IMG/VR virus record: IMGVR_UViG_3300032665_000013
Length of the DNA: 64,000 bases
Strand: one strand, 5' to 3'
Source: a virus
Lineage: Duplodnaviria > Heunggongvirae > Uroviricota > Caudoviricetes
A program made the position numbers and the translations under genes. Positions within the stretch are counted from its first letter, which is position 1. Each line of letters opens with the position of its first letter. Positions 15,178 through 44,124 of this stretch are shown here, one piece after another. The notes under the pieces were generated by a model that saw nothing but the letters and a program-made list of their open reading frames with translations, had not been told where the DNA came from and did no database searches.

Positions 15178-16145
15178 TTAGTGACCTTCAACATATTATG
15201 GGAGTAGATCATACTATATGGTATGTCGGAGTTGTAGAAAATAGAGATGATCCATTAATGTTAGGTAGATGTCAAGTTAGAATAATTGGTGTACACCCTG
15301 ATGATAAAACATTAGTTCCTACCACAGATCTTCCATGGGCTATGCCAATTCTTCCTGTTAATGGATCACCGGCTTTTGCTGGCATGGGGCATTCTCCTGT
15401 AGGACCAGTTATTGGTACAACAGTTTTTGGTATATTTGCTGATGGTATAGAGCGCCAGCTTCCATATATGCTAGGAACGATTGCAGGCGGTGTAGGACAC
15501 CTTGACGCAGGTTCTAGTGCATCACTAGGGGATACGTTATCAGGCTTCGTAGCGGGCTTTATTCCCACAGCTGCATCAACTGGCATGATATCCCGTGGAG
15601 CATTCTATGCTAAATTTCTATTACAGAATTTAAATAATGCAGGATTTAAAATAAAAGATTTTCATGCAGCGGCAATAATGGGAAATATTGCTGGCGAATC
15701 TGGTGTTCAAGCCGTGGTAGAAGGACATTTTGGGCATCCATCTGGCCCTCCTCCTATCAACAGTCATAATGTCGGATACGGATTTGCACAATGGACCAAT
15801 AGTAGATTGGTTAATTATCTCAATTATTGTAGCCAACATAATAAGAACCCTCAGAGCGAGGATGCTAATATGAGTTTTCTCATATATGAACTTACAGGAT
15901 CATTTAAAGGTATGTTAAATGCGTTAGCATCTGGCGGTACGCATAGTGCAGCTGGAAATCCTAACGGACCACATAATGTGGATAATATCATAGGGGCAAC
16001 GTCCTATGTCCTAGGACAGTTTGAACGTCCTGCCTATAGATGTTTAGCCACTACAACACCTCGTCGCATAAATTATGCACAATTGATATGGGCTGGCATG
16101 AAAGGTACTGGCCAGCCAGTTAGTGGAACAGGAACCTATTCATGA
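15174..16145 (+). CDS. 5: gp5 N-terminal part: OB-fold plus tail-associated lysozyme domain
   Basis: WYVGVVENRDDPLMLGRCQVRIIGVHPDDK...TDLPWAMP matches the gp5 OB domain. GYGFAQWTNSRLVNYLNYC is the phage tail lysozyme signature. Confidence 0.75.
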   Translation: MISDLQHIMGVDHTIWYVGVVENRDDPLMLGRCQVRIIGVHPDDKTLVPTTDLPWAMPILPVNGSPAFAGMGHSPVGPVIGTTVFGIFADGIERQLPYMLGTIAGGVGHLDAGSSASLGDTLSGFVAGFIPTAASTGMISRGAFYAKFLLQNLNNAGFKIKDFHAAAIMGNIAGESGVQAVVEGHFGHPSGPPPINSHNVGYGFAQWTNSRLVNYLNYCSQHNKNPQSEDANMSFLIYELTGSFKGMLNALASGGTHSAAGNPNGPHNVDNIIGATSYVLGQFERPAYRCLATTTPRRINYAQLIWAGMKGTGQPVSGTGTYS

Positions 16146-17941
16146 CAGATTTATCAAACACAATTAATAATATCATAACTTCTACAGAAATGGCAATAGT
16201 AGATATAGCATCAACAGATTTTCTTTCTGTTTTCGGTGGAGCAGGGAACTTATCTGTAAATAATCTAACCCAATATATTCAAAGTTTTACTAATACTATC
16301 CCCATTTCTACTGTAGAAACATATCCAACGCTTTCTTCCACTACTTCAGATGTAGACACTAATACAATATTATATAATCCAAACGTTAGTGTTAGAAGTG
16401 ATATAACTGGATCAAATACATCTGCCAATGGAGTTGTTAATCCAACCACTAGATATGTCAATCCAATAGGTAATGAACCTCCTGTAGCGGGGCAGGTTAG
16501 CTATTATCCATATAATAAAGCTTATGTGAGTGAGTCAGGCCATCTTAAAGAAATAGACGATACTCCCGGTAATGAACGTTTGTTAGATCAGCATGTATCT
16601 GGTACATATCAGGAAATGAAGGCTTCAGGCGACCATGTTATCAAGGTGGTTGGTGACAGTTATACAATTGTTGCGGGCGCAGATCATATTACAGTTCAAG
16701 GTTCTATATTAGTTCATGGCGAACAAGAATGTAATATGAGAATAGGTGGTTCCATTAATATTATAACAGATGGAGGATGTAACTTAGTATCAAAGGGGGC
16801 ACTAAGAGTTAGAGCTTCTAGTTTGGCTTTCGAATCCACATCTGGTGATATTTCATTCCTATCTGCTGCCAATTTAACTATGACAGCCGCTGGATCCACT
16901 AATATTAAAAGTCAATCGACAGCTATCCAAAGTGATAATATAACATCTATCAAAGCTGGGCAGAATTTGGTTATAGAAGCTCAAAAGATATCAGAACATT
17001 CTATGTCTGATATTGTCGCTCAGGCAAGCGGAGGAATTTATATGCAATCCCAAGGAGATACAGATATTATTTCTGGTGGCAAGACTGTATTAACAGGATC
17101 ATCTATAGAAGTAGCCGGGATATTAAATGCACAAGGTCAAACTAATATGTTAGCGTCTGGTACTCCTGTTCAAGGACAAGGTTCAGCTAGTGGTAGTAGT
17201 CAATCCCCAGATCAATTTGTTCCAGCTCAATTATCTAATGGATCTGGTATAACTGGATCTAACAATCCAGATGACGTTTATATGATGAATGATGATGATA
17301 CCCAATCTGCAATGACAGCTATTCAAACAGGTCTTAAAAATGGTACTATCCAATCTGCGGATCTTATACCACCTGCGGCTGGTCAATCAGATGCGGCTGG
17401 TGCGCCTAATGTCAATTTTAATGCTATTCCAACTTCTATTATTGCGCTGCCTAGTGGAGGTGCTTTAGATAATCTTCAGCTATCGCCTAATTTCACTTTG
17501 GGAAGACTTTCTAAACATGCTTTGGCAAGCCCTACATCAGTAGTAGCTCAACATGGGTTAAGTCAATTGCAGATGGTACAAAATCTTCAAATGTTAGCAT
17601 TGAATTCTCTGGAATTAATTAAGAAAAAGTTTCCAGACATGCAGATTACAAGTGGATTTAGATTAGGAAGTTCTAATTCTCAACATGAACGAGGTATGGC
17701 ATGTGATATGCAATTTGCATCTGCAAATGCAAATAGAAATCAATACTTTACATATGCTCAATGGATACGAGATAATGTACCATACGATCAATTATTATTA
17801 GAGTATAAAAATTCTGGTACTAAATTACCATGGATTCATATATCATATAATGGTGGAGGAAATAGACGCCAAGTATTAACCCTTTTTAACGGGCTAACAC
17901 ATGGGAGTGGGCTGATCGACCTTTCGGGTAGTTCTTCATAA
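16142..17941 (+). CDS. gp5-like beta-helical spike protein with C-terminal M15-family peptidase domain
   Basis: VxGxxxxx-type repeats (IKVVGDSYTIVAGADHITVQGSILVHG). C-terminal SGFRLGSSNSQHERGMACD has the SxHxxGxAxD zinc-binding signature of VanY/L-Ala-D-Glu peptidases. Confidence 0.6.
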   Translation: MTDLSNTINNIITSTEMAIVDIASTDFLSVFGGAGNLSVNNLTQYIQSFTNTIPISTVETYPTLSSTTSDVDTNTILYNPNVSVRSDITGSNTSANGVVNPTTRYVNPIGNEPPVAGQVSYYPYNKAYVSESGHLKEIDDTPGNERLLDQHVSGTYQEMKASGDHVIKVVGDSYTIVAGADHITVQGSILVHGEQECNMRIGGSINIITDGGCNLVSKGALRVRASSLAFESTSGDISFLSAANLTMTAAGSTNIKSQSTAIQSDNITSIKAGQNLVIEAQKISEHSMSDIVAQASGGIYMQSQGDTDIISGGKTVLTGSSIEVAGILNAQGQTNMLASGTPVQGQGSASGSSQSPDQFVPAQLSNGSGITGSNNPDDVYMMNDDDTQSAMTAIQTGLKNGTIQSADLIPPAAGQSDAAGAPNVNFNAIPTSIIALPSGGALDNLQLSPNFTLGRLSKHALASPTSVVAQHGLSQLQMVQNLQMLALNSLELIKKKFPDMQITSGFRLGSSNSQHERGMACDMQFASANANRNQYFTYAQWIRDNVPYDQLLLEYKNSGTKLPWIHISYNGGGNRRQVLTLFNGLTHGSGLIDLSGSSS

Positions 17942-19623: not shown

Positions 19624-19986
19624 TTAAACATTTTTATTTTCTCTGTTGTATTGTTCGACACTGCGCATGCCTGCGGGAGAAATAATTACTTGACCTCTTG
19701 CAGAATCTCCATAATCAGCAAAAGTCAACCAATGAAGATTTTCTTTTCCTACAAGATTTACAAAATCGGCCATTACTTTTCGTGTCATTCTAGGCAGATC
19801 CCGATATACCCAATCGATTTTATCTGGAAAGCATTCACGAACTAGAGAAGCTTCTAATTCATCAGACAGCTTCTTTAACTCTTGCATTTCTTCCTTTGTG
19901 AATGGATTATTACCAGCCATACAATTACACCTTTCGATTCCACAATATACAAAACATTTCTTATTGATTAACTCGGGTCCATACAT
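19624..19986 (-). CDS. hypothetical protein
   Basis: 120 aa ORF. Confidence 0.45.
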   Translation of the reverse strand: MYGPELINKKCFVYCGIERCNCMAGNNPFTKEEMQELKKLSDELEASLVRECFPDKIDWVYRDLPRMTRKVMADFVNLVGKENLHWLTFADYGDSARGQVIISPAGMRSVEQYNRENKNV

Positions 19987-20576
19987 TCTTTATAAATCCT
20001 TGATCTTACGTCATTTGCCGACATACCTTCCGTATCTAAAGAATTTAGAAAATTGGCAATATGATCCAATCCTTCATAGAGATAAGGTTTAGGTGTCTTA
20101 CTAACATTTGCATCATAGATCTTTTTACGTAGACCAGACGAACTAAAATGATGATCACGAGAACAATAATGAATCTTAATAGGTAAATTAGCCCCTGTAA
20201 AAGTATGATTATGTTTGTAATCAGCACCAAGAAATCTAACATCAATTGGATACGTTGTCAAGATAGCATATAGATCATCTTCTGTTTCGTATGGAATAAT
20301 TGTGGCACCTGATGCAAAAATACAACTACTTAATTGTAACCATCGTTCGAAATATGATTGGATAGGTCTGTTCTTCTCAGGGCGATCTATAGTGGGATCA
20401 GTATGCAATCCAATATAGAGGTGGCTACAATTCTCCCTACATTCCTTAAGCATTAGTAAATGCCCAGCATGTAAAAGATCAAATGAAGAAGCTATGAAAC
20501 CATTTGTCATGAATTTAAAATCGCTTCTACCAAAAAGATAAACCCTACTGTGATCACTATAAGATCCATAGCACAT
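19968..20576 (-). CDS. cytidylyltransferase-fold nucleotidyltransferase (HldE domain II / TagD-like)
   Basis: FDLLHAGHLLML is the HxGH signature. Downstream IGLHTDPTIDRPEKNRPIQSYFERWLQLSSC...LGADYK parallels the HldE adenylyltransferase domain. Confidence 0.55.
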   Translation of the reverse strand: MCYGSYSDHSRVYLFGRSDFKFMTNGFIASSFDLLHAGHLLMLKECRENCSHLYIGLHTDPTIDRPEKNRPIQSYFERWLQLSSCIFASGATIIPYETEDDLYAILTTYPIDVRFLGADYKHNHTFTGANLPIKIHYCSRDHHFSSSGLRKKIYDANVSKTPKPYLYEGLDHIANFLNSLDTEGMSANDVRSRIYKECMDPS

Positions 20577-23599: not shown

Positions 23600-24241
23600 T
23601 TACCCAACCTTCTCCGATTGGTGTGAATTCTTCACATGTTTCGCTAGTGGGCCGGGTAAAAAATTCCCGTCCTCTGCGGATGATATGCAACCAAAAGGGC
23701 ATGGCTTTGCTTTGCTTCTGTCCTTTTTTTCGTCCTTTCCCGATACCACAATCTGTGAAGATTGAAGATCTAAAACATCATCTGTTTTTGTAACATTATG
23801 CTGATTCAAATCTGGCAATAATCCGGGAAATGTGTTATGAACCAAATCATATGTGATATTCTTATAAGGACATCTTTTCTCTTTCATAGCAAGAACAAGT
23901 TCTGCATCGTCTGGATCAAGAGCCTCTAGTAGCTGTACAAACATAGTTTGACGTTTAAGATCTGGAATATTGTCAGCCTGTCCTTTGATGAATAGATAAA
24001 GGGTTCTAGACTCCCTGTAAAGACTTCCTTCACTATCAGCAGCCTTTGGCATCTTTTTAAAGTTAGGTGCGCCTTCAGGAAGGTTAAATACTACGTCAGG
24101 GTGAAACATATACATCAAAATTTGTACGAGTGGTTTAATGCTTGCACATGTACCCAATGCATCTTGGCGTTGTTTAGGATCTTTAATTCCAGAAATAATC
24201 TTGAGAATTTCAGAAATCCCCTGTCTACGCTGTTCAGTCAT
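23600..24241 (-). CDS. hypothetical protein
   Basis: 213 aa ORF. Confidence 0.5.
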   Translation of the reverse strand: MTEQRRQGISEILKIISGIKDPKQRQDALGTCASIKPLVQILMYMFHPDVVFNLPEGAPNFKKMPKAADSEGSLYRESRTLYLFIKGQADNIPDLKRQTMFVQLLEALDPDDAELVLAMKEKRCPYKNITYDLVHNTFPGLLPDLNQHNVTKTDDVLDLQSSQIVVSGKDEKKDRSKAKPCPFGCISSAEDGNFLPGPLAKHVKNSHQSEKVG

Positions 24242-24422
24242 ATTATCATTCGCCTTTTATAATTGTCTTAAATTGTGAAACACTATCAAGAAACATCAAT
24301 TGTTTCTTATGTGGAAGATCATAGAAGTTCTTCTTATTATATAGGAGGCGATAAAATTGAGATGCTTGGGATATTTCTTCACTTGTATACATATCGAGAT
24401 TCTACCTATTCATAAATTTTGT

Positions 24423-25130
24423 TCAAATCAATGCGTTGTTACGAACATCATCAAACAGCTGGTCACGCAATAGTTCACCATCTGAATACACATCTTGCAA
24501 AACATCATCTTCTGCATACATCTCATATTTAACGGGATGGCTCTCCGTGGTATAAGTAAAAAACTTACTATCCCAATATGGGGTATGCTTAAGAATCATT
24601 CGACCCTTCTTAGACCTTTTACCAGAATCAGTAAGAGGATCCTTATACACGTCAATCCATTCACCGTTGATAAATGCCGCCGAACACTTCATTGCAAACT
24701 TTTGATCGTCACGATTAACAATCTGTAGAAGAGCGCCGCCTTGGCCGAATGCCACATTATCAGCACTATAACCAATAGCAATAATAGCATTCAGAATTTC
24801 TTTGATAGTGTCAATAGTAATACCATCGCCTTGAATTACACGAACATTGTTGAGAACCTTATATCCTTTATCATTAATAGCATGCCCAAAATGATAATCA
24901 AGGATTCGGATGCAGCTTTCTACCACTGTTGCTGGATCGCCACTATCTGGGCGGATAACGGTAAACCCACCAAGTTCTCCGTTCAAGATAATCTTCTGTT
25001 TAATTTCAGGATCAGTTCCTAGGAGTTCGCAAAACTCAAAAATATTATAAGTATCTCCTACTATTGCAAAAGTCTTACCACCGGTGCCAAAATTGTCAAT
25101 CATCGTGTTAATGTAGGTTCGTTCACTCAT
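24423..25130 (-). CDS. nadV: nicotinamide phosphoribosyltransferase NadV/NAMPT, C-terminal half
   Basis: TVIRPDSGDP, GYKVLNNVRVIQGDGITIDTIKEIL, AFGQGGALLQ, KDPLTDSGKRSKKGR align with human NAMPT residues about 300-440. Own start ATG 25128-25130 with GGAAAGGAAA SD. Confidence 0.85.
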   Translation of the reverse strand: MSERTYINTMIDNFGTGGKTFAIVGDTYNIFEFCELLGTDPEIKQKIILNGELGGFTVIRPDSGDPATVVESCIRILDYHFGHAINDKGYKVLNNVRVIQGDGITIDTIKEILNAIIAIGYSADNVAFGQGGALLQIVNRDDQKFAMKCSAAFINGEWIDVYKDPLTDSGKRSKKGRMILKHTPYWDSKFFTYTTESHPVKYEMYAEDDVLQDVYSDGELLRDQLFDDVRNNALI

Positions 25131-26206
25131 TTTATATTTCCTTTCCAATCAACTAGTTTAAAAGAGCATCCATTAAACTTAGCGTTTCTTTTTGAATAAC
25201 TATTATATGTGCCTTCTTTGATGGCTATGTTCCATACCCCTTCAGTGCATCTATGTTCTCTCAAAAATGAACCTTTATTACCACAAAAGGTAAACAAAAG
25301 ATTGTCTACCGGGGAATAGCATTCTATTTTCTTGTCAGTAGCCTTCATGTGAATACTAGGATCATACTCATCGCAGTTGATATTCACAAACTTATTCAGT
25401 TCTTTAATAAAGACTGTGACCATCCCCTTTGTTGTTCCATGATCAGGTTTCCTATTTTCTTTGGACGCCAGTGTTGAGTATCTATCCTTATTATGGTAAT
25501 ATTCTTCGGTTGTTACATGACATATTTTATCAGTGAAGGAGTCTTTTACAGTAACCTTACCTGCATGAATGCCATTAAGTTCATGATTGTCTTCTGTAGT
25601 TGCATATCTTCGCATTCCAGCATCATCTATTACTTTCCCTCCAAACACCTTAACATGAACACTAGGATCAAACATGCTAACTGGCATGGAACTTGTTTCT
25701 CCTGTTTCAATAACTCGTACACTAACTTTGCCAGACGATGCGGTGCGATATAGATGTTTATTGTTTCGGTATTCCTCTACGGAAACTCTACAAACACCAC
25801 CAGATGATATTTTTATAACCCGAACACTGTTGCTAGTAGGATAAGCATGAATAGTAGAATCAAACTCATCTTTTGGAATCCTGAAATAAGTTGAATCTTC
25901 TAGCAATCTAACAACAACCGTATTTTTAGTATTCCACCCTCTGCCTCCGGATATTATATTATAAGTATCTACCCTTTTCACGAAATCTTCATTTACAAGT
26001 TCCGCTTCTTTGTTATTCATCTCATCAAACGAATCATACATGTATAATATGCGTCTGCTAAACGCATGAACACCGTATTTTAACAAGGCATTAGTAAAAC
26101 GAGTCCCGGAACCAAGATATCCATCATCAATGTTGGTAGTAGAATGCTGTCCAACATATATCATACCATTGATAGTATTTGTAGTTTCGTATATAATATA
26201 AAACAT
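25127..26206 (-). mobile_element. free-standing GIY-YIG homing endonuclease gene inserted inside nadV
   Basis: MFYIIYETTNTINGMIYVGQHS...GYLGSG. TGA stop overlaps the ATG of the nadV C-half (ATGA). Start 35 nt after the nadV N-half stop. Confidence 0.85.
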
Positions 26207-26240
26207 TTTTAAGTATGCTCCATTGCAGTAACACACTTAT

Positions 26241-26945
26241 TTAGTCCTTTTGGTGACTTGCACTTATAGAATGTTCGCTAGCAGGAATACTAAAACCAGC
26301 CATATCAGCACCATAATACCGACGAGCATACAAAAGAGCTTCGATAGTGTCAGTACCCATGAAGTTGATAAGATGGGCAGATCCGCCAATTCCAGCAGAT
26401 TCCAAACTAGATACGCCACGAGCGCCGAAATCGTGCAATTTAAAATTAATATCAGCGGGTGTGCCAGTATGTTCAAGAGCATCCAAAATCACCTTCTTAA
26501 TTTCACGACTATTGGTTGCTACTGTTGTAGGATACCAAATCGAACGAAGAATAGCAGTTTCAAGAAAACTTGTCAACCAATAACATTTTGGATCTGTGTT
26601 GATGATAGTCGCCAACACATTACGAACAGGAATAACCATTCCCTCTGGAACTGCCTTAATATGAACAGGAAGGCAACCATTATGAGCATGAAGAATATAT
26701 TCCCATCCTTCACGGTTAAATGGTTCACCATGGGCAGTAATAATGGCCTCAGCTTCATCAATCATGTCTTGGGTAATAGGTGCAAGCAAGTATTCCTTGA
26801 TAAATGCTTGGAGGCCAAAAAATACGGTTTCATCATACTTTCCACCCCTACTCTCGATATAACTGTAGATATATTCGGTGTTAGGAGGATATTGATTGAA
26901 CTGGCTGTACTTATACGAATCTGCGTTAAGAATAATATTTTTCAT
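26241..26945 (-). CDS. nadV: nicotinamide phosphoribosyltransferase NadV/NAMPT, N-terminal half
   Basis: ILNADSYKYSQFNQYPPNTEYIYSY, IKAVPEGMVIP, INTDPKCYWLTSFLETAILRSIWYPTTVATNSREIKK, KLHDFGARGVSS are near-identical in pattern to NAMPT residues 10-245. Ends at HQKD where NAMPT continues. Confidence 0.9.
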   Translation of the reverse strand: MKNIILNADSYKYSQFNQYPPNTEYIYSYIESRGGKYDETVFFGLQAFIKEYLLAPITQDMIDEAEAIITAHGEPFNREGWEYILHAHNGCLPVHIKAVPEGMVIPVRNVLATIINTDPKCYWLTSFLETAILRSIWYPTTVATNSREIKKVILDALEHTGTPADINFKLHDFGARGVSSLESAGIGGSAHLINFMGTDTIEALLYARRYYGADMAGFSIPASEHSISASHQKD

Positions 26946-26998
26946 AGTAGCAAAACTCCTTTGCTTGTTAATGATCTTGGTCTGTCCTAGATCAGTCG

Positions 26999-27313
26999 TT
27001 ATTTAGGCGAAAACTTAAAAACCGCATCATAATTTTCATTCCATCCGGGAGAATCATATACTACAGTCCAACCCTGTTGTCTATAAATTTCTTCAATATC
27101 AAGATAATTATTTTCGAATATTTCTACTCGTGTCATCCCAGATTTAATGAGCTTTTCTATAATTGTATTTTGAGAAATTGTAAATGGTCTATTATTAAAT
27201 TCCTTAACAATTAACTCATTAACAGTTTCGATAACAATTTGAGGAATATAATGGACTTTACTAGATAAAGCTTCTTTTGGTGAAATAGGAAGTATATGTC
27301 TAGATGTTACCAT
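26999..27313 (-). CDS. hypothetical protein
   Basis: 104 aa ORF. Confidence 0.45.
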   Translation of the reverse strand: MVTSRHILPISPKEALSSKVHYIPQIVIETVNELIVKEFNNRPFTISQNTIIEKLIKSGMTRVEIFENNYLDIEEIYRQQGWTVVYDSPGWNENYDAVFKFSPK

Positions 27314-27795
27314 TATTCAAACTCCACTAAAGTTACCGAGCCTCCTTGCTCTGTTATCACCTTAGCAAAATCTTCTAGCATAGTCAAGATACGATTTTTA
27401 TCTCCACCAGCAAGACCCATTCCGATATAAGGAAATCCAAATCTAGCTTTACTAAGTGTAGTAAGCTTCTTTAGAATAAGATAGAAGCTCTCATACTCGA
27501 AATGATCAATGCCACGAGGCGTATAGTGGACCTGAGTGTATGCATTGATCACGATGAAATTAAAAGTTGTATACGAGCTAAAGTTGCCAAGCTTAGCGAC
27601 AGGATTCTTCCACTGTTGAGATGCCAAACAATCAGCATCATATGCACCCGGATATCTTGCACGAATTTCCTTGGCAATGCCCCCTGCCATTGTGTTTTGA
27701 CAGTTGCAACCATGTACGATAACATCAAACTCACCTTGTTCGGCAAGATCAATAAGGTTTCCTTTGGTATGTTTAAGCATTGTTCTGACTTTCAA
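27313..27795 (-). CDS. macro-domain protein (ADP-ribose binding/processing)
   Basis: GNLIDLAEQGEFDVIVHGCNCQNTMAGGIAKEI fits the macro domain N-terminal signature (G.I......DAIVN.AN..L..GGGV..AI). Confidence 0.6.
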   Translation of the reverse strand: MKVRTMLKHTKGNLIDLAEQGEFDVIVHGCNCQNTMAGGIAKEIRARYPGAYDADCLASQQWKNPVAKLGNFSSYTTFNFIVINAYTQVHYTPRGIDHFEYESFYLILKKLTTLSKARFGFPYIGMGLAGGDKNRILTMLEDFAKVITEQGGSVTLVEFE

Positions 27796-27967
27796 TTTTT
27801 CGAATTTTCGGCTTCATATTTTCATAAATTATATGACGACAAGCGGCTAATGAAAATGGGTTGTAAGGAACAAAACATCCTCCTGAACCATCATCATTCA
27901 GCGACCATCTAGAACAAAATTCTATACAATCACATTCAACACGATCTGTTGTTTTATCATTTATCAT
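27773..27967 (-). CDS. small Cys-rich protein
   Basis: 64 aa with CDC...C...C...C pattern. Confidence 0.3.
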   Translation of the reverse strand: MINDKTTDRVECDCIEFCSRWSLNDDGSGGCFVPYNPFSLAACRHIIYENMKPKIRKIESQNNA

Positions 27968-28012
27968 AAAATTTATCCCAAATTGCGTTTCGGAATCGAA
28001 TATGGTGGTAAA

Positions 28013-28318
28013 TTATATTCGATTCCGAACCTCATCATCCCATTTGCAAAAGGTTTTGTATTTCTTAGTAGACTGTTCTACAATTGCGATCGATTGAGAA
28101 AAATTGAAATTATTGGCGACAAAGTAATTCAAAGCAGCGTATACGTCACCGATTTCTTCGATAAACTTTTCATTAAGATCGCCAGACCAATGATCAGTCT
28201 TGCCTTCAGATCCAATCAGCTTTCCGCAAACTTGTTGCAGTTCACCCAATTCTTCGATCAGCTTGGACAACCCGTTCCATTCGCTTGATCCTATACAATA
28301 TGGTTTAGTCATGGCCAA
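28013..28318 (-). CDS. mazG: MazG-like nucleotide pyrophosphohydrolase domain protein
   Basis: LIEELGELQQ...EEIGDVYAAL matches the EExGE...EExGD MazG core. Confidence 0.5.
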   Translation of the reverse strand: MAMTKPYCIGSSEWNGLSKLIEELGELQQVCGKLIGSEGKTDHWSGDLNEKFIEEIGDVYAALNYFVANNFNFSQSIAIVEQSTKKYKTFCKWDDEVRNRI

Positions 28319-28653
28319 TCCTGCGCTTTCTTACGTTCAAATTCACGTAGCATTTTAGCATTTTTTTGTTTTAAACGAATGCTTCTTTCATATTCTTTAT
28401 CCATATTAATAAAAAATTTCTTTTCCTCACATGTTAGATCTATGTTGAATAGAGTATCTCTATCTGCTAAAATTGCGCCTCTCGTCAATGTTACAGTTTT
28501 CCAGAAGAATCCATAAACACAAACACGCCAATTATCGTTTATATTACGAATTCTATCTTTATTGACATAATAGCTCGTTTCATGCCAATTATCCCATAAG
28601 ATATCATATCCCTCATTTTTAATTTGGTTTATAACAAATTGTGCAAATCTCAT
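28309..28653 (-). CDS. hypothetical protein
   Basis: 114 aa ORF. Confidence 0.45.
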   Translation of the reverse strand: MRFAQFVINQIKNEGYDILWDNWHETSYYVNKDRIRNINDNWRVCVYGFFWKTVTLTRGAILADRDTLFNIDLTCEEKKFFINMDKEYERSIRLKQKNAKMLREFERKKAQDWP

Positions 28654-28908
28654 TTTTCTATCCTTTATTCACATATCTAATTCAAGCTAAACCAAAGATA
28701 TCTGTTGGTATACTCGTTATAGATATCAATGCCTTCCTTTAACTTATATAATGTAAGTCTTTTATCTGGAAGCTTACGAGTTATAATAGCTTTAAGTTTA
28801 AAATAATCTAAATCTGACATTACTCGACCTTATCTAATATATCAAGAATTTCTTTTTCAGTTGCCTCATCATCATTATAATCTTCGTTAATAAACTTAAC
28901 TGGATCAC

Positions 28909-29145
28909 CTATCTTAAATTTATTAATTTGTTCTTGTAGAAAAGTATATATATCAATGGTGATAAAATATCACTAGAACCATAATAATTACTTTTCTGTA
29001 ATATCTTTTTACGTAAATCACATGTAGTATAAGCTTCTATTTTATCTCTTACATTTCTAGTCTCATTATAAAATTCTACCATCAATTTTTCAGTATTAGA
29101 ATCTATTAATACTTTGAATAACTTATCTTGGAACTTAATATACAT
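28909..29145 (-). CDS. hypothetical protein
   Basis: 78 aa ORF in an AT-rich stretch holding several short minus-strand ORFs. Confidence 0.3.
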   Translation of the reverse strand: MYIKFQDKLFKVLIDSNTEKLMVEFYNETRNVRDKIEAYTTCDLRKKILQKSNYYGSSDILSPLIYILFYKNKLINLR

Positions 29146-29205
29146 AATTAATCACCTTAATAATTTACTTCATAAATACATTAACTAATCTTTAATTTAT
29201 AACGA

Positions 29206-29517
29206 TCAGTTAGACTTTTCAGTTAAACTGCAAACTGAATCAATATTGTCTGTTTCAATAAGCTGCCATCCATTATATGCATTCCAAATAGCAAATCTTC
29301 CATCAAACTGTCCTCCATGTAATTTTTGTATTTTCGTATCTCCACAAATTTTAACTATTGTGGAAGATACAGGTAACTTATATTGTTCTTCCACAGTTTC
29401 ATTTTCATTTCCAGCTAGATTACGATATGGGGGATTGCCGATGTAATACCCAGAAGAGGCGTCATCATCACAACCAGAAAGAGTTAAACATATTAATATC
29501 ATAATAAAGTATTTCAT
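29206..29517 (-). CDS. lipoprotein (lipobox LSGC)
   Basis: MKYFIMILICLTLSGCDD. Confidence 0.5.
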   Translation of the reverse strand: MKYFIMILICLTLSGCDDDASSGYYIGNPPYRNLAGNENETVEEQYKLPVSSTIVKICGDTKIQKLHGGQFDGRFAIWNAYNGWQLIETDNIDSVCSLTEKSN

Positions 29518-29566
29518 AACTAATTCCTTAATAATTTACTACTGCTTGTCCAATTTTTAAATTTAT

Positions 29567-30052
29567 TCATGGCAATGTTTCCGGGTAATAATGTGTTTCA
29601 ACCACATTTTTGCATCTATCACATAAGCCAGTTTCATTGTCAACAATTTTATATCGTTTCCAACACCTAGGGCATTTTAGATCTAAATTTATAAAATGTA
29701 ATGCGCCGAGTTTAACTTCGCCACAATTAGCAATATTACAATCGGAAGGAAAGATTCCTGATGGTATACAGACGATATCTTCAATACTAGCTCCTCTGCC
29801 TACAATATCAGACAGTTCGCCAGATTGATTATCCATATCGAGCATAATAGCTACATCAAACATATTGGTATAAAATATCCATCCAATATCTTCAGCCTTT
29901 GTAATTTTATTTTGCTTTCTGATATTCATGTCTAATTTGCTCGCTGCGTTATCAATTAAATCTCGCAATATTTTCTTCACATCAAATTCATGAAATTCAA
30001 TATCTTGATGTTTGTCCATCAAATTAGTATCAGTGTCAAAAAGTAGACGCAT
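29567..30052 (-). CDS. hypothetical protein with C-terminal zinc ribbon
   Basis: CPRCW...CDRC. Confidence 0.45.
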   Translation of the reverse strand: MRLLFDTDTNLMDKHQDIEFHEFDVKKILRDLIDNAASKLDMNIRKQNKITKAEDIGWIFYTNMFDVAIMLDMDNQSGELSDIVGRGASIEDIVCIPSGIFPSDCNIANCGEVKLGALHFINLDLKCPRCWKRYKIVDNETGLCDRCKNVVETHYYPETLP

Positions 30053-30055
30053 ATA

Positions 30056-31153
30056 TCATACTCCTAGGAAGAAATTGATAATATGAAAATGATCATCAAA
30101 AAGCATATCTTCACGAAGTTCCCCGATAGGGATCCACTTTGCTTTTTCAGCATCATCCGCACCTTTGACCTTAGGCAATTTTACATCATCTGTCAACTTG
30201 AAATGGGCAGCATGAGTGATAACCCTACCCAAAGTAGATCGATGCACATCATCGAACACATGTTCGCCTACTTGACAACCACGGATAACCTTTTCAGGAA
30301 CCTTAATAAGAGTTTCTTCCTTAAGTTCACGAAGGATACCATCGGATATACGTTCATCCATCTCTAAATGGCCTCCCGGAAGTGCCCACAGCCCCTTTCC
30401 CGGCTCACTGCGGCGCTTTACCAACAGAATATGCCCAGATTGCTCTACAACAGCATCTACAGTAACATGTTTAACTGGATATGGTGCAGCTGCCCATGAT
30501 TTCTTATATGCCTTTACGTGGACCAATTCCGACTTCAATTGGTCATACTCTGAGGTATGAATAAATCGGTCAAAGAGAAATTGTGCGCTCTCCTTAGGAA
30601 GAAGAGAATCTTGGACTTCCCATTTATGTAACCGTCCTTCAAGAAATCCTTCACGAATATTAGTTGCATGAATATCTCCATGAACATCCACATTCACGGA
30701 TTCCCATTGGGGGAACAATTTAAGATAATATGAAGAATGATCTTTAGAGGCTCCAATCAAGCCTACTTTGGCATCAGCAGTTCCATGAAGATGAAATCCA
30801 CCCTCATTAATGATATCAAGAGTTACATTATTAGCAATATCTTGAATTTGCTTAACCCACGCACTATCATTGTAAAGCTTATCATATAGAGGCTTAATAA
30901 TAAGGCGACTGTTAGCAGTTTCTGTGGAATATCCAAATGGAATCCCTACATGATCTGAGAATACCTCAGAAATAACATTTTCTCGCTCTTGAAATGTAAA
31001 GGGGGTACGAATTGTACGTGCTTTACCAGCAGATCCAACCAAAACCAAGACATTTCTTGATTTCTCTAAAGCGGTTTGGATAACCTTGACATGGCCAAGG
31101 TGAAGAGGACTAAATCGCCCAATAAAAACCAATAGGTCAAATTCTTTATTCAT
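30056..31153 (-). CDS. natV: bifunctional NMN adenylyltransferase (NadM type) plus Nudix hydrolase, NatV-like
   Basis: N-terminal LVFIGRFSPLHLGHV (GRFQP.H.GH). C-terminal Nudix box GLWALPGGHLEMDERISDGILRELKEETLI. Confidence 0.85.
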   Translation of the reverse strand: MNKEFDLLVFIGRFSPLHLGHVKVIQTALEKSRNVLVLVGSAGKARTIRTPFTFQERENVISEVFSDHVGIPFGYSTETANSRLIIKPLYDKLYNDSAWVKQIQDIANNVTLDIINEGGFHLHGTADAKVGLIGASKDHSSYYLKLFPQWESVNVDVHGDIHATNIREGFLEGRLHKWEVQDSLLPKESAQFLFDRFIHTSEYDQLKSELVHVKAYKKSWAAAPYPVKHVTVDAVVEQSGHILLVKRRSEPGKGLWALPGGHLEMDERISDGILRELKEETLIKVPEKVIRGCQVGEHVFDDVHRSTLGRVITHAAHFKLTDDVKLPKVKGADDAEKAKWIPIGELREDMLFDDHFHIINFFLGV

Positions 31154-31213
31154 AGCTCAAAACTCCTTTGAGTAATTATGCAAAGAGTCTATCTCTAAGC
31201 ATCGGTATTTATA

Positions 31214-31522
31214 TTAGCAAGAATGCTCTCTTAATACGATTCCAACCTTTGTCTGAATATATTGACAATCATATTTATTATCTTGAATTATATTCATATC
31301 GTCAGTAGTTTTATCTCCATCTGTCCGATATCCAATTACCAATCCATCATTTGATGGTGGTGTTGAAGTAGATGTATCGACAGGAACATCAGTTTCGCTG
31401 GTAGTAGGTATTCCTGTATCGACTTGAGATGTATTAATTTTATTATGTTTACCAGATTGCCCACCTTGGGCTTCGCATCCTGATAGCAAACATATCGCAA
31501 TAATGCAAGATAAAAGTTTCAT
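31214..31522 (-). CDS. lipoprotein (lipobox LSGC)
   Basis: MKLLSCIIAICLLSGCEA. Confidence 0.5.
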   Translation of the reverse strand: MKLLSCIIAICLLSGCEAQGGQSGKHNKINTSQVDTGIPTTSETDVPVDTSTSTPPSNDGLVIGYRTDGDKTTDDMNIIQDNKYDCQYIQTKVGIVLREHSC

Positions 31523-31568
31523 ATTATAATCCTAAAAAATGGAGGGGATTTCTCCCCTCCAAATTCAA

Positions 31569-32423
31569 TTAGTTGCTAGGAAGCTGGATCATATTGGATG
31601 CATTGCCTGCAACATAAGTTGGCAAATGACCATCCCACTTTTCCAGATACTTTTGCTTCAGAATGTTGGGATTCGCTTCTAGAGCTTGTGCCTCGATCTG
31701 GGTAGCCTTAGCATCACCTGTAGCCTTAGCTACTCGTGCTTCTGCATCAGCCTTGGCAGTTGCGACATTAGCTTCAGCTGCCAGAGCTTGCTGTTGGTTA
31801 GTGATCTTTTGATTGATCTGTGCCATAACAGCCTGAGGAACACGAGGACCGCCAGCCCAATAAAGCTGCTCTACAACCAAACCACGGTCGTTGAAAAACT
31901 TCTGAACATCAACCTGAGTTCGTGCCAAAAGCTCTCCCTTCTTAGCACCATAGATATCTTCAATGCTCATTGCAGAGGCTTGATTAATCAAAGCTCCACG
32001 AATTTCATTGCGAAGTGGTCCAGCAATGATATCGTCCATATCCATACGATAGTTTGTATACAACTTAGGAGCCTTAGATGGATCCACATGGTATGCTACA
32101 CCAATATCTGCTGTAGCACTCATACCGTTACTATCGTTGAACTGAAATTCCTCGTTAACATTATTCCCTTCATTGGAAGAAGCTGTCCAAACATAAGTAT
32201 GAGTCGATACAGGATACTCATAAATCGAAGTGCCTAGTCCGGTAAAATAAGTACCAATTCCCTTAGGATCTGGATCTACACCGGCATTAGAACCCCATGA
32301 GGTAACTTGGATACCCACGTTACCCGGAGCAACCCTCGAACACGCACCAAGACTGACAGCGCAAACGCTAAGCAAAATAATATCACGAATCTTCATTATT
32401 AACATCTTCCTTTTGATTGACAA
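31569..32423 (-). CDS. SPFH/band-7 (stomatin/prohibitin-like) lipoprotein
   Basis: Lipobox SLGAC, then SPFH-like core with Ala/Gln-rich coiled-coil tail. Confidence 0.6.
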   Translation of the reverse strand: MSIKRKMLIMKIRDIILLSVCAVSLGACSRVAPGNVGIQVTSWGSNAGVDPDPKGIGTYFTGLGTSIYEYPVSTHTYVWTASSNEGNNVNEEFQFNDSNGMSATADIGVAYHVDPSKAPKLYTNYRMDMDDIIAGPLRNEIRGALINQASAMSIEDIYGAKKGELLARTQVDVQKFFNDRGLVVEQLYWAGGPRVPQAVMAQINQKITNQQQALAAEANVATAKADAEARVAKATGDAKATQIEAQALEANPNILKQKYLEKWDGHLPTYVAGNASNMIQLPSN

Positions 32424-37267: not shown

Positions 37268-37881
37268 TAGTATTTTATCTCCTCTGGATTTTTATCGCTC
37301 TGAGTTCTACGGATAGTCTGAGCGATAAAATGCATCAATGCTTGGCTTGCATCTTCAACAATCCCATAATTATTAGATTCGATATGTAAATAAACATCTG
37401 AGTAGTCTAATGCTGCTCCTCCATCGAATCCTACAATTGCAATTGTTTTCATACATTTAGCTTTAGCTGTTTGTAATGCTTTGCAAATATTTGGACTATT
37501 TCCAGATGAACTAATAGCAATTAAAACATCATTGCGCCTTCCTTGCCATTCTATTTGTTTTGAAAAAACTTCATCATAACCAATATCATTGGCGATGGCA
37601 GTCATAACAGAAACATTTGATGCTAAAGAAATAATTTTTGGATATAATTCTGTATCTGTTGCTACCCCTTTCATACAATCACATGATAAATGTTCAGATA
37701 TTGCTGCTGACCCGCCATTGCCACATGTGAATATGGTTTTAGAAGATCCCATAGCTTGTATCATAATATCAACTATTTGATCTAAATCAAATTCATCAAT
37801 ATTATGAATTGCTACTGCTAGGTCATCAGCATAAGTATGCAAATCTAGATAAGGTTTAGTCACGATATACCACCTTTGCAC
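37267..37881 (-). CDS. gmhA: sedoheptulose-7-phosphate isomerase GmhA (SIS domain)
   Basis: IFTCGNGGSAAISEHL and SSSGNSPN. Confidence 0.8.
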   Translation of the reverse strand: MQRWYIVTKPYLDLHTYADDLAVAIHNIDEFDLDQIVDIMIQAMGSSKTIFTCGNGGSAAISEHLSCDCMKGVATDTELYPKIISLASNVSVMTAIANDIGYDEVFSKQIEWQGRRNDVLIAISSSGNSPNICKALQTAKAKCMKTIAIVGFDGGAALDYSDVYLHIESNNYGIVEDASQALMHFIAQTIRRTQSDKNPEEIKY

Positions 37882-38803
37882 CTTCTGGTGCCATTTTAAC
37901 TGTTAACACTGTGTCTTTAAACTTACATTGTGTTAATTTGTTGCGATCTTTTTCTGTTTGCATCATGGCTAATATATACCCACCTCCGCCAGCACCAAGA
38001 ACCTTACATCCGATACTGCCTAAGGAATAACAAGTTTCAATAATATCATCTATGATATTGTTTGATATTTCGGATGATGTTTTTTTCTTAAGGTTCCACG
38101 AATGAGATAAATTTGTGCCATACTGAATTATATCTACTTTAGAATTTCCAATTAAATGCGCTATATCTTTTATTTTATCTAAGTGGTTCGATTTATCAAA
38201 CACCACAGTATCTAAAATTGAGGTGGCTTTTCTTTGTATTCCAGTTGAAATAAGAACACAATTATCCAATATATTATTATCATCAATTTTAGAAATTTTA
38301 CATCCAGATTCTGAATATTCGATATAATTCATCCCACCAAATGCTGAAGCATACTGATCTTGTTTGCCAATTCTCCATCCGCATTTTTCAATTTCTATCT
38401 TAGAGGCAAGCTCTGCTATTGAATATGCATTATATCCAGAAAAAGAATATAAATCTACTACAGCAGAAATAAGGGCACATGTGAAGGCAGAAGATCCACC
38501 TAGCCCACTTCCTATCGTAGGAATATCCGCCCATGTATTAATTTCGATACCTGTTTTTATTCCAAAATATTTGAGAACTTCTCTGACAATATCATGTTCA
38601 ATATCATTGATATCATAGACAAGTTCTTGTTTCATATATGAAATTTTAACATGACGATGCGGAGTTTTACTAACAGCCACATAAACAAATTTATCAACAG
38701 CGATGGAGATTGTAGCGCCACCGCCATTATTAATATAATACTCTGGAACATCTGTACCACCTCCAAAAAAGCTAACCCGTAACGGAGCTTTAGCTAAAAT
38801 CAT
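37856..38803 (-). CDS. hddA: GHMP-family D-glycero-D-manno-heptose 7-phosphate kinase (HddA-like)
   Basis: APLRVSFFGGGTDV N-terminus and GHMP motif IPTIGSGLGGSSAF. Confidence 0.75.
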   Translation of the reverse strand: MILAKAPLRVSFFGGGTDVPEYYINNGGGATISIAVDKFVYVAVSKTPHRHVKISYMKQELVYDINDIEHDIVREVLKYFGIKTGIEINTWADIPTIGSGLGGSSAFTCALISAVVDLYSFSGYNAYSIAELASKIEIEKCGWRIGKQDQYASAFGGMNYIEYSESGCKISKIDDNNILDNCVLISTGIQRKATSILDTVVFDKSNHLDKIKDIAHLIGNSKVDIIQYGTNLSHSWNLKKKTSSEISNNIIDDIIETCYSLGSIGCKVLGAGGGGYILAMMQTEKDRNKLTQCKFKDTVLTVKMAPEGAKVVYRD

Positions 38804-38958
38804 AAAATTTCCTCAATAACAACCCCAACCTCTACATTTAGTACATTTTACCCCGCCGCCGGGGGCATTAACTATATCCCCGTCACAATCTGGGGTAGCA
38901 TCCCATAGCTCATCGTGATATTCTTTGCGCTTGGCTTCTTTACGTCCATCCTCTGTCA

Positions 38959-39969
38959 TTATCCGGTCCTATACATGAACTTTGGAGACGCTACAGAAAT
39001 GTCTTTCCCTATGTTTTCGGCTACCAATGATTGGCATAAGGCATTCCACTGAGAAGACACTCTATCCCAATTAAATCTAAAATCTGCATATGTTTTTACA
39101 AAATTAAGATATGGCATCATATTATCATTTTGTAGACGATTAATAGTATCATCCAAGAGATTATAGAACAATCCAGCATGTTTGTTTTGATCATTATCCC
39201 ATTGATATTGTAATGTCAACCCACCACTTGTATCAGTTAATCCTGCAAAATTAGGATGAACGCATACACAACCAGATGACATTGCCTCAATCAAGGATCT
39301 ACTATTACATTCCATCCAAATGGAAGGATATGCAAAAATATGTGCATTTGCTACATGCTGTCTTACAGTTTCGTTACTAGCAAATCCGTGGTAGTTAATT
39401 TGGGGATGATTTCGACAACGTTCAAATAATTCTTCGAATTGTGCATCAGCTTCTGACCATCCATAAATTGCATAGCTAGAAAATACATCTAAAATTATAT
39501 TAGGATGTTTCTTCGCCAGTTCTTCAAATACTGGCACCAAGATGTTCAATCCTCTCTGAGGAGTGGAGGTATAGATTAAACGTATTTCTTTTTTTGGATC
39601 TGGTTTATTAATTGCTGGAAATGGATCAATTGCGGTATCGATTACACAGAATTGCTGAGTTTGGGGGACACCTAACAACATCTGATATGCGTTCATTTGC
39701 CAATTACCACAATATACTATCTTATGAAACCTATTTCTGCTATTAGGATCCTGTAGATGTTTAGTTTCACTATCCATTGGTAGATCATGAACCCAATAAA
39801 TTCTAAGCCTATCATCATGTAATTCTCGTACACGAGAAGGAATAATCTGAAATTTATCATGAAATTCCGGGTTTAATCTTGAAATAAGACCTTCTACCAT
39901 TTGTTCAGTTCCGCCATGAGAATTCTTATTTAATTCATTACGGGACCAAAGTTTTGGATCAATGCTCAT
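38959..39969 (-). CDS. GT4/GT1-family glycosyltransferase
   Basis: C-terminal ECNSRSLIEAMSSGCVCV corresponds to the E.FG..L.EAMA.G.PV motif. Confidence 0.65.
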   Translation of the reverse strand: MSIDPKLWSRNELNKNSHGGTEQMVEGLISRLNPEFHDKFQIIPSRVRELHDDRLRIYWVHDLPMDSETKHLQDPNSRNRFHKIVYCGNWQMNAYQMLLGVPQTQQFCVIDTAIDPFPAINKPDPKKEIRLIYTSTPQRGLNILVPVFEELAKKHPNIILDVFSSYAIYGWSEADAQFEELFERCRNHPQINYHGFASNETVRQHVANAHIFAYPSIWMECNSRSLIEAMSSGCVCVHPNFAGLTDTSGGLTLQYQWDNDQNKHAGLFYNLLDDTINRLQNDNMMPYLNFVKTYADFRFNWDRVSSQWNALCQSLVAENIGKDISVASPKFMYRTG

Positions 39970-40945
39970 AATTTAATTCCTCGATATGTCTATAATGCGA
40001 TTTAATAATATCGCTTAAATTGTGTTTGGGTCTATAATTCAATTGTGTGATGGTTTTAAACGTATCTGCTAAAAGATACGCAGGATCCCCAGAACGTTCT
40101 TCGCTTATCGAATAAGTTAAAGGAAAATGCTGCTGAAACATTTTTACAAGCTCTTTATTAGAGCTATGGCATGCATTACCATTTCCAACGTTAAATGTGT
40201 CGAAATATCCATATTCAGTGAGGATGATATGGTTGGCGGCAGCTATAAGAGTTCGACACACATCTTCTACATGTATGTAATCTCTAACACAGGTTCTGTC
40301 ATATGTATTATAATCAGATCCAAATATCTTGAATTCAGACTTATTTATAGAGGCCATAGACATTTTTGTCAATATATGAGGTTGATCAACATCCTGTCCT
40401 AATTCCCCATATGAGCCTGCTACATTGAAAAACCTCATAGCCATAGCTCTGGCACCATATGCGGCACATACAGCCTCTAAGAGCTTCTCTCCGAACCATT
40501 TGGTCCATCCATAGGGGTTGATGGGATTTCCTGCTAAATCTTCTCTGATTAGATGTGATGTTCCAACATCACCATATACCGCAGCAGAAGAAGCAAAAAC
40601 AATAGGAGTTTTTTGATTTACTCCTTCTACGATACCAGTCAACATTTCAGTTAAATGTGAATTGTTGTTTTTAAAATATGTAAGAGGATTTGTCACAGAT
40701 GGGCCAAGCAAACTATTGGCTCCTAAATGGAATATTACATCAACTTTATTTTGTTTAGCTTTCCAAAAGTTGATATTGCCATATCCTGTAGGCTTATTAT
40801 TATAAGCACGAGAAACATAATTAGAAATGATGTCCAAAGGCTTATTATCAATATCCAAAGCCACAACATTCCAACCAGATTCATGAAGAATTTTACAAAG
40901 AATTCGGCCAATATATCCCCCTGCTCCGGTAACAATAGCTTTCAC
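39959..40945 (-). CDS. NAD-dependent sugar-nucleotide epimerase/dehydratase (extended SDR)
   Basis: VTGAGGYIG Rossmann motif. Catalytic YGWTK (YxxxK). Confidence 0.75.
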   Translation of the reverse strand: MKAIVTGAGGYIGRILCKILHESGWNVVALDIDNKPLDIISNYVSRAYNNKPTGYGNINFWKAKQNKVDVIFHLGANSLLGPSVTNPLTYFKNNNSHLTEMLTGIVEGVNQKTPIVFASSAAVYGDVGTSHLIREDLAGNPINPYGWTKWFGEKLLEAVCAAYGARAMAMRFFNVAGSYGELGQDVDQPHILTKMSMASINKSEFKIFGSDYNTYDRTCVRDYIHVEDVCRTLIAAANHIILTEYGYFDTFNVGNGNACHSSNKELVKMFQQHFPLTYSISEERSGDPAYLLADTFKTITQLNYRPKHNLSDIIKSHYRHIEELNYEH

Positions 40946-43752: not shown

Positions 43753-43830
43753 TGGCGAATGCGCTGGGATTCGAACCCAGATTTTCAGTTTTGGAGACTG
43801 ACGTGTTAAACCATTGATCACTACGCAAAC
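43753..43830 (-). tRNA. tRNA-Trp(CCA), acceptor stem with two U-U mismatches
   Basis: Minus-strand cloverleaf: anticodon arm TCAGT-CTCCAAA-ACTGA, T-arm CTGGG-TTCGAAT-CCCAG, encoded CCA. Acceptor GTTTGCG/CGCATTC is weak. Confidence 0.5.
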
Positions 43831-43913
43831 GTGAGGGCAAGGTTTTTTAAAGAAAAACCCTGCAAGAAAACTTAATCTCTGTATTATACCAGAGCAGCTC
43901 TGATGCATGCTAC

Positions 43914-44123: not shown

Positions 44124-44124
44124 C

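Follow-up and report, generated by a model that had tools for sequence, protein, structure and literature searches.

What does a phage gain by carrying an ADP-ribose (ADPR)-processing macrodomain gene inside an operon for rebuilding NAD+? The question is raised by a stretch of 64,000 nt from the IMG/VR virus record IMGVR_UViG_3300032665_000013, hereafter the window, which covers only 64 kb of the phage genome. NAD+ depletion is among the commonest bacterial anti-phage strategies, and descriptions of the NAD+ reconstitution pathways NARP1, NARP2 and NARP3 date from 2024 to 2026. In the published view, NARP2 can do without a helper against RES-type NAD+ phosphorylases, and the macrodomain enzyme Adpp is an add-on of NARP1. 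The same macrodomain family was found here in ~40% of the uncultivated NARP2 operons of one large clade, which raises the question of what a pathway based on phosphoribosyl pyrophosphate (PRPP) gains from an ADPR-adduct hydrolase. Candidate gains are recycling of the pathway's cost, detoxification of ADPR-1''-phosphate (ADPR-1''-P) and anti-DarT activity. Gene identities, conserved residues, gene order and the mobility of an endonuclease gene in this operon were directly established, and the catalytic activities and the counter-defence role are predicted from sequence.

The window encodes a NARP2-type operon with an embedded macrodomain gene

The minus strand from 31153 to 24423 is an unbroken row of same-strand open reading frames (ORFs), comprising in 5' to 3' order natV, five small ORFs, a MazG-like ORF, orf64, the macrodomain gene (macro), orf104, nadV-N, a homing endonuclease gene (HEG) and nadV-C. 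The first gene, natV (30056..31153, minus strand), encodes a 365-aa bifunctional nicotinamide mononucleotide (NMN) adenylyltransferase (NMNAT) and Nudix hydrolase. NatV scored 411 bits (cutoff 397; E 4e-123) with the NCBIfam bifunctional NMNAT/Nudix equivalog NF003786 and also matched Pfam CTP_transf_like and NUDIX and phrog_395 (E 5e-76). An HxGH motif, PLHLGH, and a Nudix box, GHLEMDERISDGILRELKEETLI, are visible in its translation. On the same strand, 3.1 kb downstream of natV, the nicotinamide phosphoribosyltransferase (Nampt) NadV is encoded by two ORFs which jointly cover positions 5-461 of the 465 positions of NF006629. The first-pass annotation, made from the window alone, had placed these minus-strand ORFs correctly, and profile searches bore out its calls of an NMNAT-Nudix fusion, a split NadV and an embedded macrodomain protein. 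It had not identified the HEG behind the split, and its MazG-like call was matched at the PHROG level only.

NadV and NatV constitute the salvage pair of Vibrio phage KVP40, to which the first-pass annotation had rightly compared them. This pair was named NARP2 by the Sorek laboratory, and KVP40 NARP2 (Nampt and Nmnat) overcomes type I Thoeris and DSR2 experimentally (Osterman et al. 2024). It also cancels the RES-domain system aRES (Osterman et al., bioRxiv 10.64898/2026.01.28.702374). By its gene content the region is a predicted phage NAD+ reconstitution operon of the NARP2 type.

A terminator-like hairpin with a 9-bp stem (6 GC pairs) and a T6 tail lies upstream of orf102 and natV (31540..31561, minus strand) and is the sole strong terminator-like site in 24000..31700. 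Because this only strong hairpin sits just upstream of the gene row, it probably marks the 5' boundary of the operon, and the row is probably a single transcription unit. The identical row (100%), split NadV included, was recovered in the independently assembled 38-kb JGI contig L142, which is one of 16 contigs, drawn from several JGI and SRA metagenomes, that encode an identical NatV protein. Megablast against INPHARED (50,697 phage records) gave no match to the window, and the best cultured NadV matches, at no more than 69% identity, were those of Synechococcus phages B3/B23, Ralstonia RsoM2USA and Acidovorax ACP17. Since the window also encodes a gp32-like single-stranded DNA-binding protein, a gp5-like baseplate hub/lysozyme, tail proteins, RNA ligase 1, an ATP-dependent DNA ligase and 18 tRNAs, we conclude that its source is a large uncultivated myovirus-like phage.

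A macrodomain gene recurs between natV and nadV

The linkage of macro to the pathway was assessed in IMG/VR loci seeded with NadV alone, which yielded 60 distinct contigs with at least 4 kb of upstream sequence. In 54 of these, natV was located within 5 kb upstream of nadV, and 24 (40%) carried a macro homologue on the same strand within 3 kb upstream. In the clade nearest the window, 10 of 14 contigs had macro within these 3 kb. When all loci were considered, the order natV, macro, nadV was observed for 45 distinct macro alleles, with a median macro-to-nadV gap of 100 nt and a natV-to-macro gap of at most 60 nt for 11 of them, and NatV was 36-64% identical to that of the window across these loci.

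Among cultured phages, natV and nadV adjoin each other and the operon is free of macro in Acidovorax ACP17, Roseobacter DSS3P8, Rhizobium RHph_X66 and Synechococcus BUCT-ZZ01. Neither KVP40 nor Aes508 carries a macro gene close to nadV, and the macro gene of Synechococcus phage B23 is situated ~23 kb from nadV. Two related loci contain a NADAR gene in the natV-nadV slot instead of macro (L120, 9260-9769; L123, 9376-9924). A further locus, L063, has a NADAR gene (9499-9981) directly upstream of its macro gene. The occurrence of NADAR domains next to NadM/NadV was remarked on by Iyer et al. 2022 (PMC9503650).

A macrodomain in an NAD+ reconstitution operon is already known for NARP1, as is NARP2 itself, and no description of a macrodomain inside a NARP2 operon was found in the literature. 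The first-pass statement that such an arrangement is undescribed in NAD salvage operons therefore holds for NARP2 and fails for NARP1, where the Poa1p-like Macro gene Adpp is present inside 15% of the operons (bioRxiv 10.64898/2026.01.28.702374).

The macrodomain protein belongs to the Tk.4/Adpp/Poa1p family

The macro ORF (27313..27795, minus strand) encodes a 155-aa protein from its likely ATG at 27780. It matched phrog_335 (E 1.6e-42) and, with 22.2 bits, Pfam Macro barely above the cutoff of 22. The AlphaFold2 model of the protein (pLDDT, the predicted local distance difference test, of 89) was matched by Foldseek to the macrodomains of DarG, the best match, Poa1p and TARG1 with E values of 1e-8 to 1e-7 (5m31, E 8.6e-9; 6lfr, E 7e-8). 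The best phmmer match in the PDB was yeast Poa1p, an ADPR-1''-P phosphatase (E 1.6e-5), and tblastn detected relatives in 2,666 phage genomes, T4-like tk.4 among them.

Two members of this family have been studied experimentally. Adpp of Vibrio phage Gary converts ADPR-1''-P, the product of the aRES NAD+ phosphorylase, to ADPR and thereby restores NARP1 activity, and its H24A and N27A mutants are inactive (bioRxiv 10.64898/2026.01.28.702374). Toxicity has been ascribed to ADPR-1''-P, which RES NAD+ phosphorylases produce. The second member, T4 tk.4, is needed to resist DarTG2 and has been named AdfM (HIDEN-SEQ preprint, Nov 2025). The window protein shares 29% identity with Gary Adpp (E 2e-13), with His28 and Asn31 aligned to Adpp H24 and N27, and 29% identity with T4 Tk.4 (E 2e-17). 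The invariant His and Asn and the motifs NxYxQ and IGxG are common to all three. As Tk.4 is in the same family with the same motifs, sequence cannot separate the two roles. Sequence and fold together place macro in the family and leave its substrate unfixed between the Adpp and AdfM roles. The catalytic Lys of DarG and TARG1 is absent from the window protein and aligns with the invariant Gln88. We abandoned this absence as an argument for excluding an anti-DarT role, because T4 AdfM also has Gln at this position yet counters DarTG2.

In a neighbour-joining tree, the NARP2-linked macrodomain proteins formed a clade apart from nine of ten NARP1-linked Adpps, the tenth, from phage phiAbaA1, pairing with KP15 Tk.4. 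The catalytic His (VHGCNC) is present in the window protein, in T4 Tk.4 and in all ten sampled NARP1 Adpps.

A homing endonuclease gene splits nadV

The 234-aa product of nadV-N (26241..26945, minus strand) matched positions 5-238 of the 465 of NF006629 (E 8e-101) as well as Pfam NAMPT_N and NAPRTase, and aligns to residues 19-248 of PDB 7yqo with the DSYK, HDFGARG, GTDT and EHS motifs kept. The 235-aa product of nadV-C (24423..25130, minus strand) matched positions 239-461 (E 8e-72) and aligns to 7yqo residues 259-476, keeping RPDSGDP, VIQGDG and FGQGG. Between the two halves lies a free-standing GIY-YIG (Seg-like) HEG of 359 aa (25127..26206, minus strand), which matched phrog_314 (E 1e-30) and has an IIY...YVG motif. 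The N half ends with TAA, and the HEG starts 34 nt further on in another frame, preceded by GGAG. The ATG of nadV-C overlaps the TGA of the HEG (ATGA), and both NadV ORFs are full length, in frame and equipped with ribosome-binding sites. The insertion is located nine codons past the catalytic His of NadV, where intact relatives read EHSTVTSWGRE followed by GEVASYRN and the window reads EHSISASHQKD, a stop codon and then MSERTYIN.

Nearly all related loci carry an intact nadV, a single-polypeptide form that the window does not have and that is a typical feature, not a functional requirement. When nadV-C was used as the query, many of the best relatives were themselves proteins of ~225-235 aa on long contigs. 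Inspection of three of these contigs (L148, 92 kb; L149, 304 kb; L150) revealed the same layout of N half, HEG and C half, with the break in nadV at the same site. Between these HEGs and that of the window, identity is 45-82%, and the split is thus present in four diverged lineages, with the unusual junction residues common to the split lineage. In a sliding identity comparison, residues 1-210 of the window NadV were closest to intact alleles (83-97%), whereas residues ~211-300, which flank the HEG, were closest to the HEG-bearing L150 (80-87%, versus 24-64% for intact alleles). Concordantly, DNA identity between the window and L150 was 80-91% over the HEG and the junction and 52-79% elsewhere. 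Synonymous divergence (dS) between the two was 0.76 for the HEG and 2.2 or more, hence saturated, for the NadV halves. The ratio of nonsynonymous to synonymous divergence (dN/dS) was 0.14 for the HEG and, with dS saturated, 0.13 for nadV-C against the C half of L150.

The same insertion site in diverged contigs, the mosaic flanks and a dS of the HEG below that of nadV indicate that the HEG is mobile. By these comparisons, a free-standing HEG homed into nadV and co-converted its flanks, and purifying selection continues on both pieces. The element would have brought ~25 upstream and ~65 downstream codons from the donor allele. NadV would then be made as two polypeptides that must assemble into the enzyme, and we infer that they do so to give an active Nampt.

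Other causes of the split were considered and rejected. A group I intron found no Rfam match at the gathering threshold or at E<=1 and no non-coding room, and an intein is incompatible with the stop codons and the different frame that separate the ORFs of the window. The identical row in the independently assembled L142 excludes an artefact of one assembly. Decay of the C half, suggested by its 55% identity against 85% for the N half, was mostly rejected, as intact relatives show the same asymmetry; the excess divergence of the C half is attributed to the co-conversion tract.

The nadV genes of L118 (9989-12328) and L123 (9965-12316) carry an in-frame intein of ~320 aa in the catalytic RPDSGDP motif, between RPD and SGDP, with junctions reading ...VRPD-CYDDQT...VSGN-SGDP.... 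Together with the free-standing HEG of the window, this makes NadV a target of at least two kinds of selfish element. No report of a HEG-split NadV was found in the literature. It is a new example of a known phenomenon, by which Nampt joins the few enzymes that seemingly tolerate cuts by a selfish element, and length filters in homology surveys will miscount split genes such as nadV.

A proposed role for the macrodomain protein and its alternatives

We propose, with confidence no more than middling, that macro acts like Adpp and dephosphorylates ADPR-1''-P within a working NARP2. NadV would convert nicotinamide and PRPP to NMN, and the N-terminal domain of NatV would adenylate NMN to NAD+. The Nudix domain of NatV would split free ADPR into AMP and ribose-5-phosphate, an activity that Lee and colleagues reportedly described in 2017. 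Macro, as a member of a family that cleaves C1'' substituents of ADPR, would remove the 1''-phosphate from the RES-type product ADPR-1''-P, detoxifying it and returning free ADPR to the Nudix arm of NatV. The phage would recover AMP and ribose-5-phosphate, and the adenylate and ribose pool would not be left locked up. Macro would thus extend NARP2 the way Adpp extends NARP1. This proposal is based on the family and the His and Asn residues that macro shares with the validated Adpp, and is supported by the independent linkage of the same macrodomain family to the unrelated NARP1 pathway.

More tentatively, and with some doubt on our side, the natV-nadV slot may generally accommodate ADPR-freeing enzymes (Macro in ~40%, NADAR in some loci) which, with the Nudix domain, would form a three-step recycling loop, "NARP2-AP". 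ADPR-1''-P or ADP-ribosylated DNA would yield free ADPR, ADPR would be split into AMP and ribose-5-phosphate, and the latter would be converted to PRPP, feeding NMN and then NAD+ synthesis. If this holds, one operon would undo non-canonical NAD+ consumption by RES phosphorylases and DarT, and the same operon would pay part of the PRPP cost of NARP2; the two-piece Nampt would also be catalytically competent. The first-pass annotation had NAD+ rebuilt from nicotinamide and ADPR. This part of its proposal stands only in an indirect form, as the substrates of NARP2 are nicotinamide, PRPP and ATP; ADPR is not a direct substrate and could contribute only indirectly, via the Nudix domain of NatV and a PRPP synthetase.

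Several observations weigh against an Adpp-like role in a recycling pathway. Foremost among them, NARP2 by itself cancels aRES in the published assay, where the phosphatase is not required (bioRxiv 10.64898/2026.01.28.702374). No PRPP synthetase was seen in the window, and neither the ten window ORFs of 250-370 aa nor the Pfam lists for contigs L142 and L143 included a Prs- or Adps-like Pfam match. The position of the catalytic His is occupied by Gln (VQGCNC) in 26 of the 51 NARP2-linked macrodomain proteins of loci L001-L139, which hints that activity or mechanism differs in half of this clade. T4 Tk.4, with the same family membership and motifs, protects against DarTG2, and the sharing of the slot with NADAR, which in T4 is an anti-DarT factor, suits an anti-DarT reading as well as ADPR recycling. 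Moreover, the shared gene order may in part reflect common descent. As to NadV, the residues beside the split depart from the otherwise invariant STVTSWG motif, and the assembly and activity of a two-piece Nampt are predicted only.

Among the alternatives, an AdfM-like function deserves most attention, although we hold it to be rather unlikely. Macro would then be an anti-DarT2 factor that removes ADP-ribose from phage DNA, would not feed NAD+ synthesis, and would be located here because counter-defence genes cluster and are co-expressed early. The requirement for T4 Tk.4 against DarTG2, the agreement between Tk.4 and the window protein at every invariant residue (alignment E 2e-17) and the DarG macrodomain as best Foldseek match all argue for this function. 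NADAR, the T4 anti-DarTG1 domain, in the same slot of L120 and L123 fits it at least as well as it fits recycling, and a DarG2-like anti-defence protein of a chimallivirus is also reported. However, the family includes a proven ADPR-1''-P phosphatase that is embedded in NAD+ reconstitution operons, and in many diverged contigs macro is packed closely between natV and nadV, separated from its neighbours by a few to ~100 nt. In addition, the macro genes of T4, Felix O1-like phages and KP15 lie outside NAD operons, so that the NARP-linked position is clade-specific. The Adpp-like and AdfM-like roles may both be true of a promiscuous enzyme.

A purely metabolic explanation appears improbable to us. 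The module would be a general booster that supplies NAD+ for ligase, ribonucleotide reductase and redox reactions, with macro clearing ADPR-1''-P generated by RNA repair along the KptA/Tpt1 route. It is in line with the rise in NAD+ that NARP2 causes even without any defence system, with the RNA ligase 1, calcineurin-like phosphoesterase, ATP-dependent DNA ligase and 18 tRNAs of the window, and with the function of Poa1p in tRNA splicing (bioRxiv 10.64898/2026.01.28.702374). On the other hand, the DNA ligase of the window is of the ATP-dependent type, no KptA/Tpt1 homologue was seen, and experimental anti-defence phenotypes exist for NARP2 and Adpp; the booster and counter-defence readings are also mutually compatible. 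Still less probable is that the split NadV is a decaying pseudogene and that NARP2 of the window phage no longer works. The interruption of nadV, the junction residues ISASHQ in place of the invariant TVTSWG, and the 51-62% identity of the C half to intact relatives, compared to 60-73% among those relatives, point in this direction. Against it stand two full-length, in-frame ORFs with ribosome-binding sites and an ATGA overlap, catalytic motifs that are all kept, a dN/dS of 0.13 (dS saturated), and conservation of the same split in four lineages whose HEGs are just 45-82% identical. Furthermore, the odd junction residues are common to the split lineage, and the C half is less conserved throughout the clade. 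We regard as least probable, to the point of being hardly credible, that macro degrades or binds the ADPR-derived immune signals gcADPR or histidine-ADPR (His-ADPR) and so blocks Thoeris signalling. Macro domains do cleave 1''-linked ADPR adducts, Thoeris II ThsA binds His-ADPR by a macro domain, and Iyer et al. 2022 predicted that phage macro domains target soluble ADPR derivatives. But cleavage of gcADPR or His-ADPR is not known for any member of this family, and the two experimentally studied members act on ADPR-1''-P and against DarT2, respectively. The operon supplies a natural three-gene construct with which the contribution of an ADPR-adduct hydrolase to a PRPP-based pathway can be addressed by experiment.

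Further genes of the operon and its surroundings

The MazG-like ORF (28013..28318, minus strand) encodes 99 aa from its likely ATG at 28312 and is a candidate all-alpha NTP pyrophosphohydrolase. It matched phrog_25433, of unknown function (E 5.5e-17), and the NTP pyrophosphohydrolase family phrog_4856 (E 1e-6), and contains EExxE and EExxD motifs. Pfam and PDB searches gave no match to this ORF, and the assignment made in the first-pass annotation is thus a weak one. Homologues are present between natV and macro in 10 related loci.

The start of orf104 (26999..27313, minus strand) overlaps the stop of macro, and its product, a small conserved phage protein, is one of a family of ~100-aa phage proteins with 2,034 representative homologues at E<=1e-3. 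Its AlphaFold2 model (pLDDT 92) had no significant fold match in the PDB and weakly resembles winged-helix proteins. Roseobacter phage DSS3P8 has a homologue between natV and nadV. Nevertheless, orf104 was rejected as a dedicated NARP2 component and left out of the pathway, because the family is large and, of 80 viral loci, only ~10% had natV or nadV nearby.

Between natV and the MazG-like ORF lie five small ORFs (28309-30052), namely orf161, a lipoprotein-like 103-aa ORF, orf78, orf47 and orf114. The product of orf161 (29567..30052, minus strand) has a Cys-rich, zinc-ribbon-like C-terminus with only a sub-threshold Pfam zinc-finger match. No tblastn match to the five ORFs was obtained at E<=1e-5 in 139 related IMG/VR loci, and this stretch, with 31% GC, is the most AT-rich of the window. 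The five ORFs look like a lineage-specific insertion. Lipoprotein-like small ORFs occur on both sides of natV on the minus strand (MKYFIMILICLTLSGC at 29517..29206 and MKLLSCIIAICLLSGC at 31522..31214).

Just upstream of the operon, past the terminator, a Band_7/SPFH (prohibitin-like) protein is encoded at 31569-32423 (minus strand). Homologues were matched in 12 related IMG/VR loci, and Rhizobium phage RHph_X66 likewise has a gene of the prohibitin family after nadV. The array of 17 minus-strand tRNA genes over 43753-62320 includes a plus-strand ORF with a NUMOD3 motif (45065-45829), a second candidate homing endonuclease. The ATP-dependent DNA ligase, the calcineurin-like phosphoesterase and the T4-type RNA ligase 1 are encoded within the same array (55589-59669, minus strand), which is predicted to provide an RNA-repair and translation toolkit.

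Elsewhere in the window, a Ro60/TROVE-like RNA-binding protein (1193-2647, plus strand; phrog_850, E 6e-144) is encoded between a truncated tRNA-like element (964-1024; Rfam tRNA, 38.7 bits) and tRNA-Ala (2863-2938), and may represent a phage Rsr together with a partner resembling Y RNA. The gp5-like baseplate hub/tail lysozyme consists of two overlapping plus-strand ORFs, 15174-16145 and 16142-17941, which match phrog_430 at positions 11-112 and 308-556, respectively; either a natural two-gene form or a frameshift may account for this. Sugar-nucleotide genes on the minus strand (37856-40945 and 19968-20576) encode a GHMP kinase, a glycosyltransferase and an NAD-dependent epimerase/dehydratase, and separately a cytidylyltransferase-like protein that contains the motif FDLLHAGH. 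The set may serve the modification of DNA or of surface glycans.

Comparison with known systems

The HEG-split nadV resembles known phage genes in pieces, such as those due to the seg and mob genes of T4. Aeromonas phage Aeh1 nrdA is said to be split in this way by the free-standing HEG mobE. In each case a free-standing HEG is inserted in a conserved enzyme gene near the active site, leaving two ORFs without intron or intein, with co-conversion of the flanks and constraint on both halves. The window differs in its target, NadV, in the GIY-YIG (Seg-like) class of its HEG, and in that the function of the split enzyme is predicted.

The NADAR genes beside NadM/NadV (Iyer et al. 2022) are comparable to macro in that an ADP-ribose-processing domain adjoins phage NAD+ salvage genes. 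The domain there is NADAR and not Macro, and the text of PMC9503650, as searched, has no mention of Macro with NadV. T4 Tk.4/AdfM agrees with the window protein in family (phrog_335), length (155 aa) and invariant residues, whereas tk.4 adjoins tk and vs in a phage without an NAD reconstitution pathway and its shown phenotype is protection from DarT2.

KVP40 NARP2 has the same two enzyme families, the same predicted chemistry and the same NMNAT-Nudix fusion as the window. In KVP40, however, natV does not lie within 6 kb of nadV and NadV is a single polypeptide, while the window has both genes in one compact operon, a HEG-split NadV, and macro, the MazG-like ORF and orf104 between the core genes.

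Finally, Gary NARP1-AP (Adps-Adpp-Namat) shares with the window a Poa1p-like macrodomain gene between the two enzymes of an NAD+ reconstitution operon, with the catalytic His and Asn conserved. The partner pathway in the window is NARP2, which does not take ADPR as a substrate and overcomes aRES alone. The two macrodomain proteins are 29% identical and fall into separate clades, and half of the NARP2-linked proteins have Gln for the catalytic His. Both genes are accessory, Adpp being present in 15% of NARP1 operons and macro in ~40% of the sampled NARP2 contigs.

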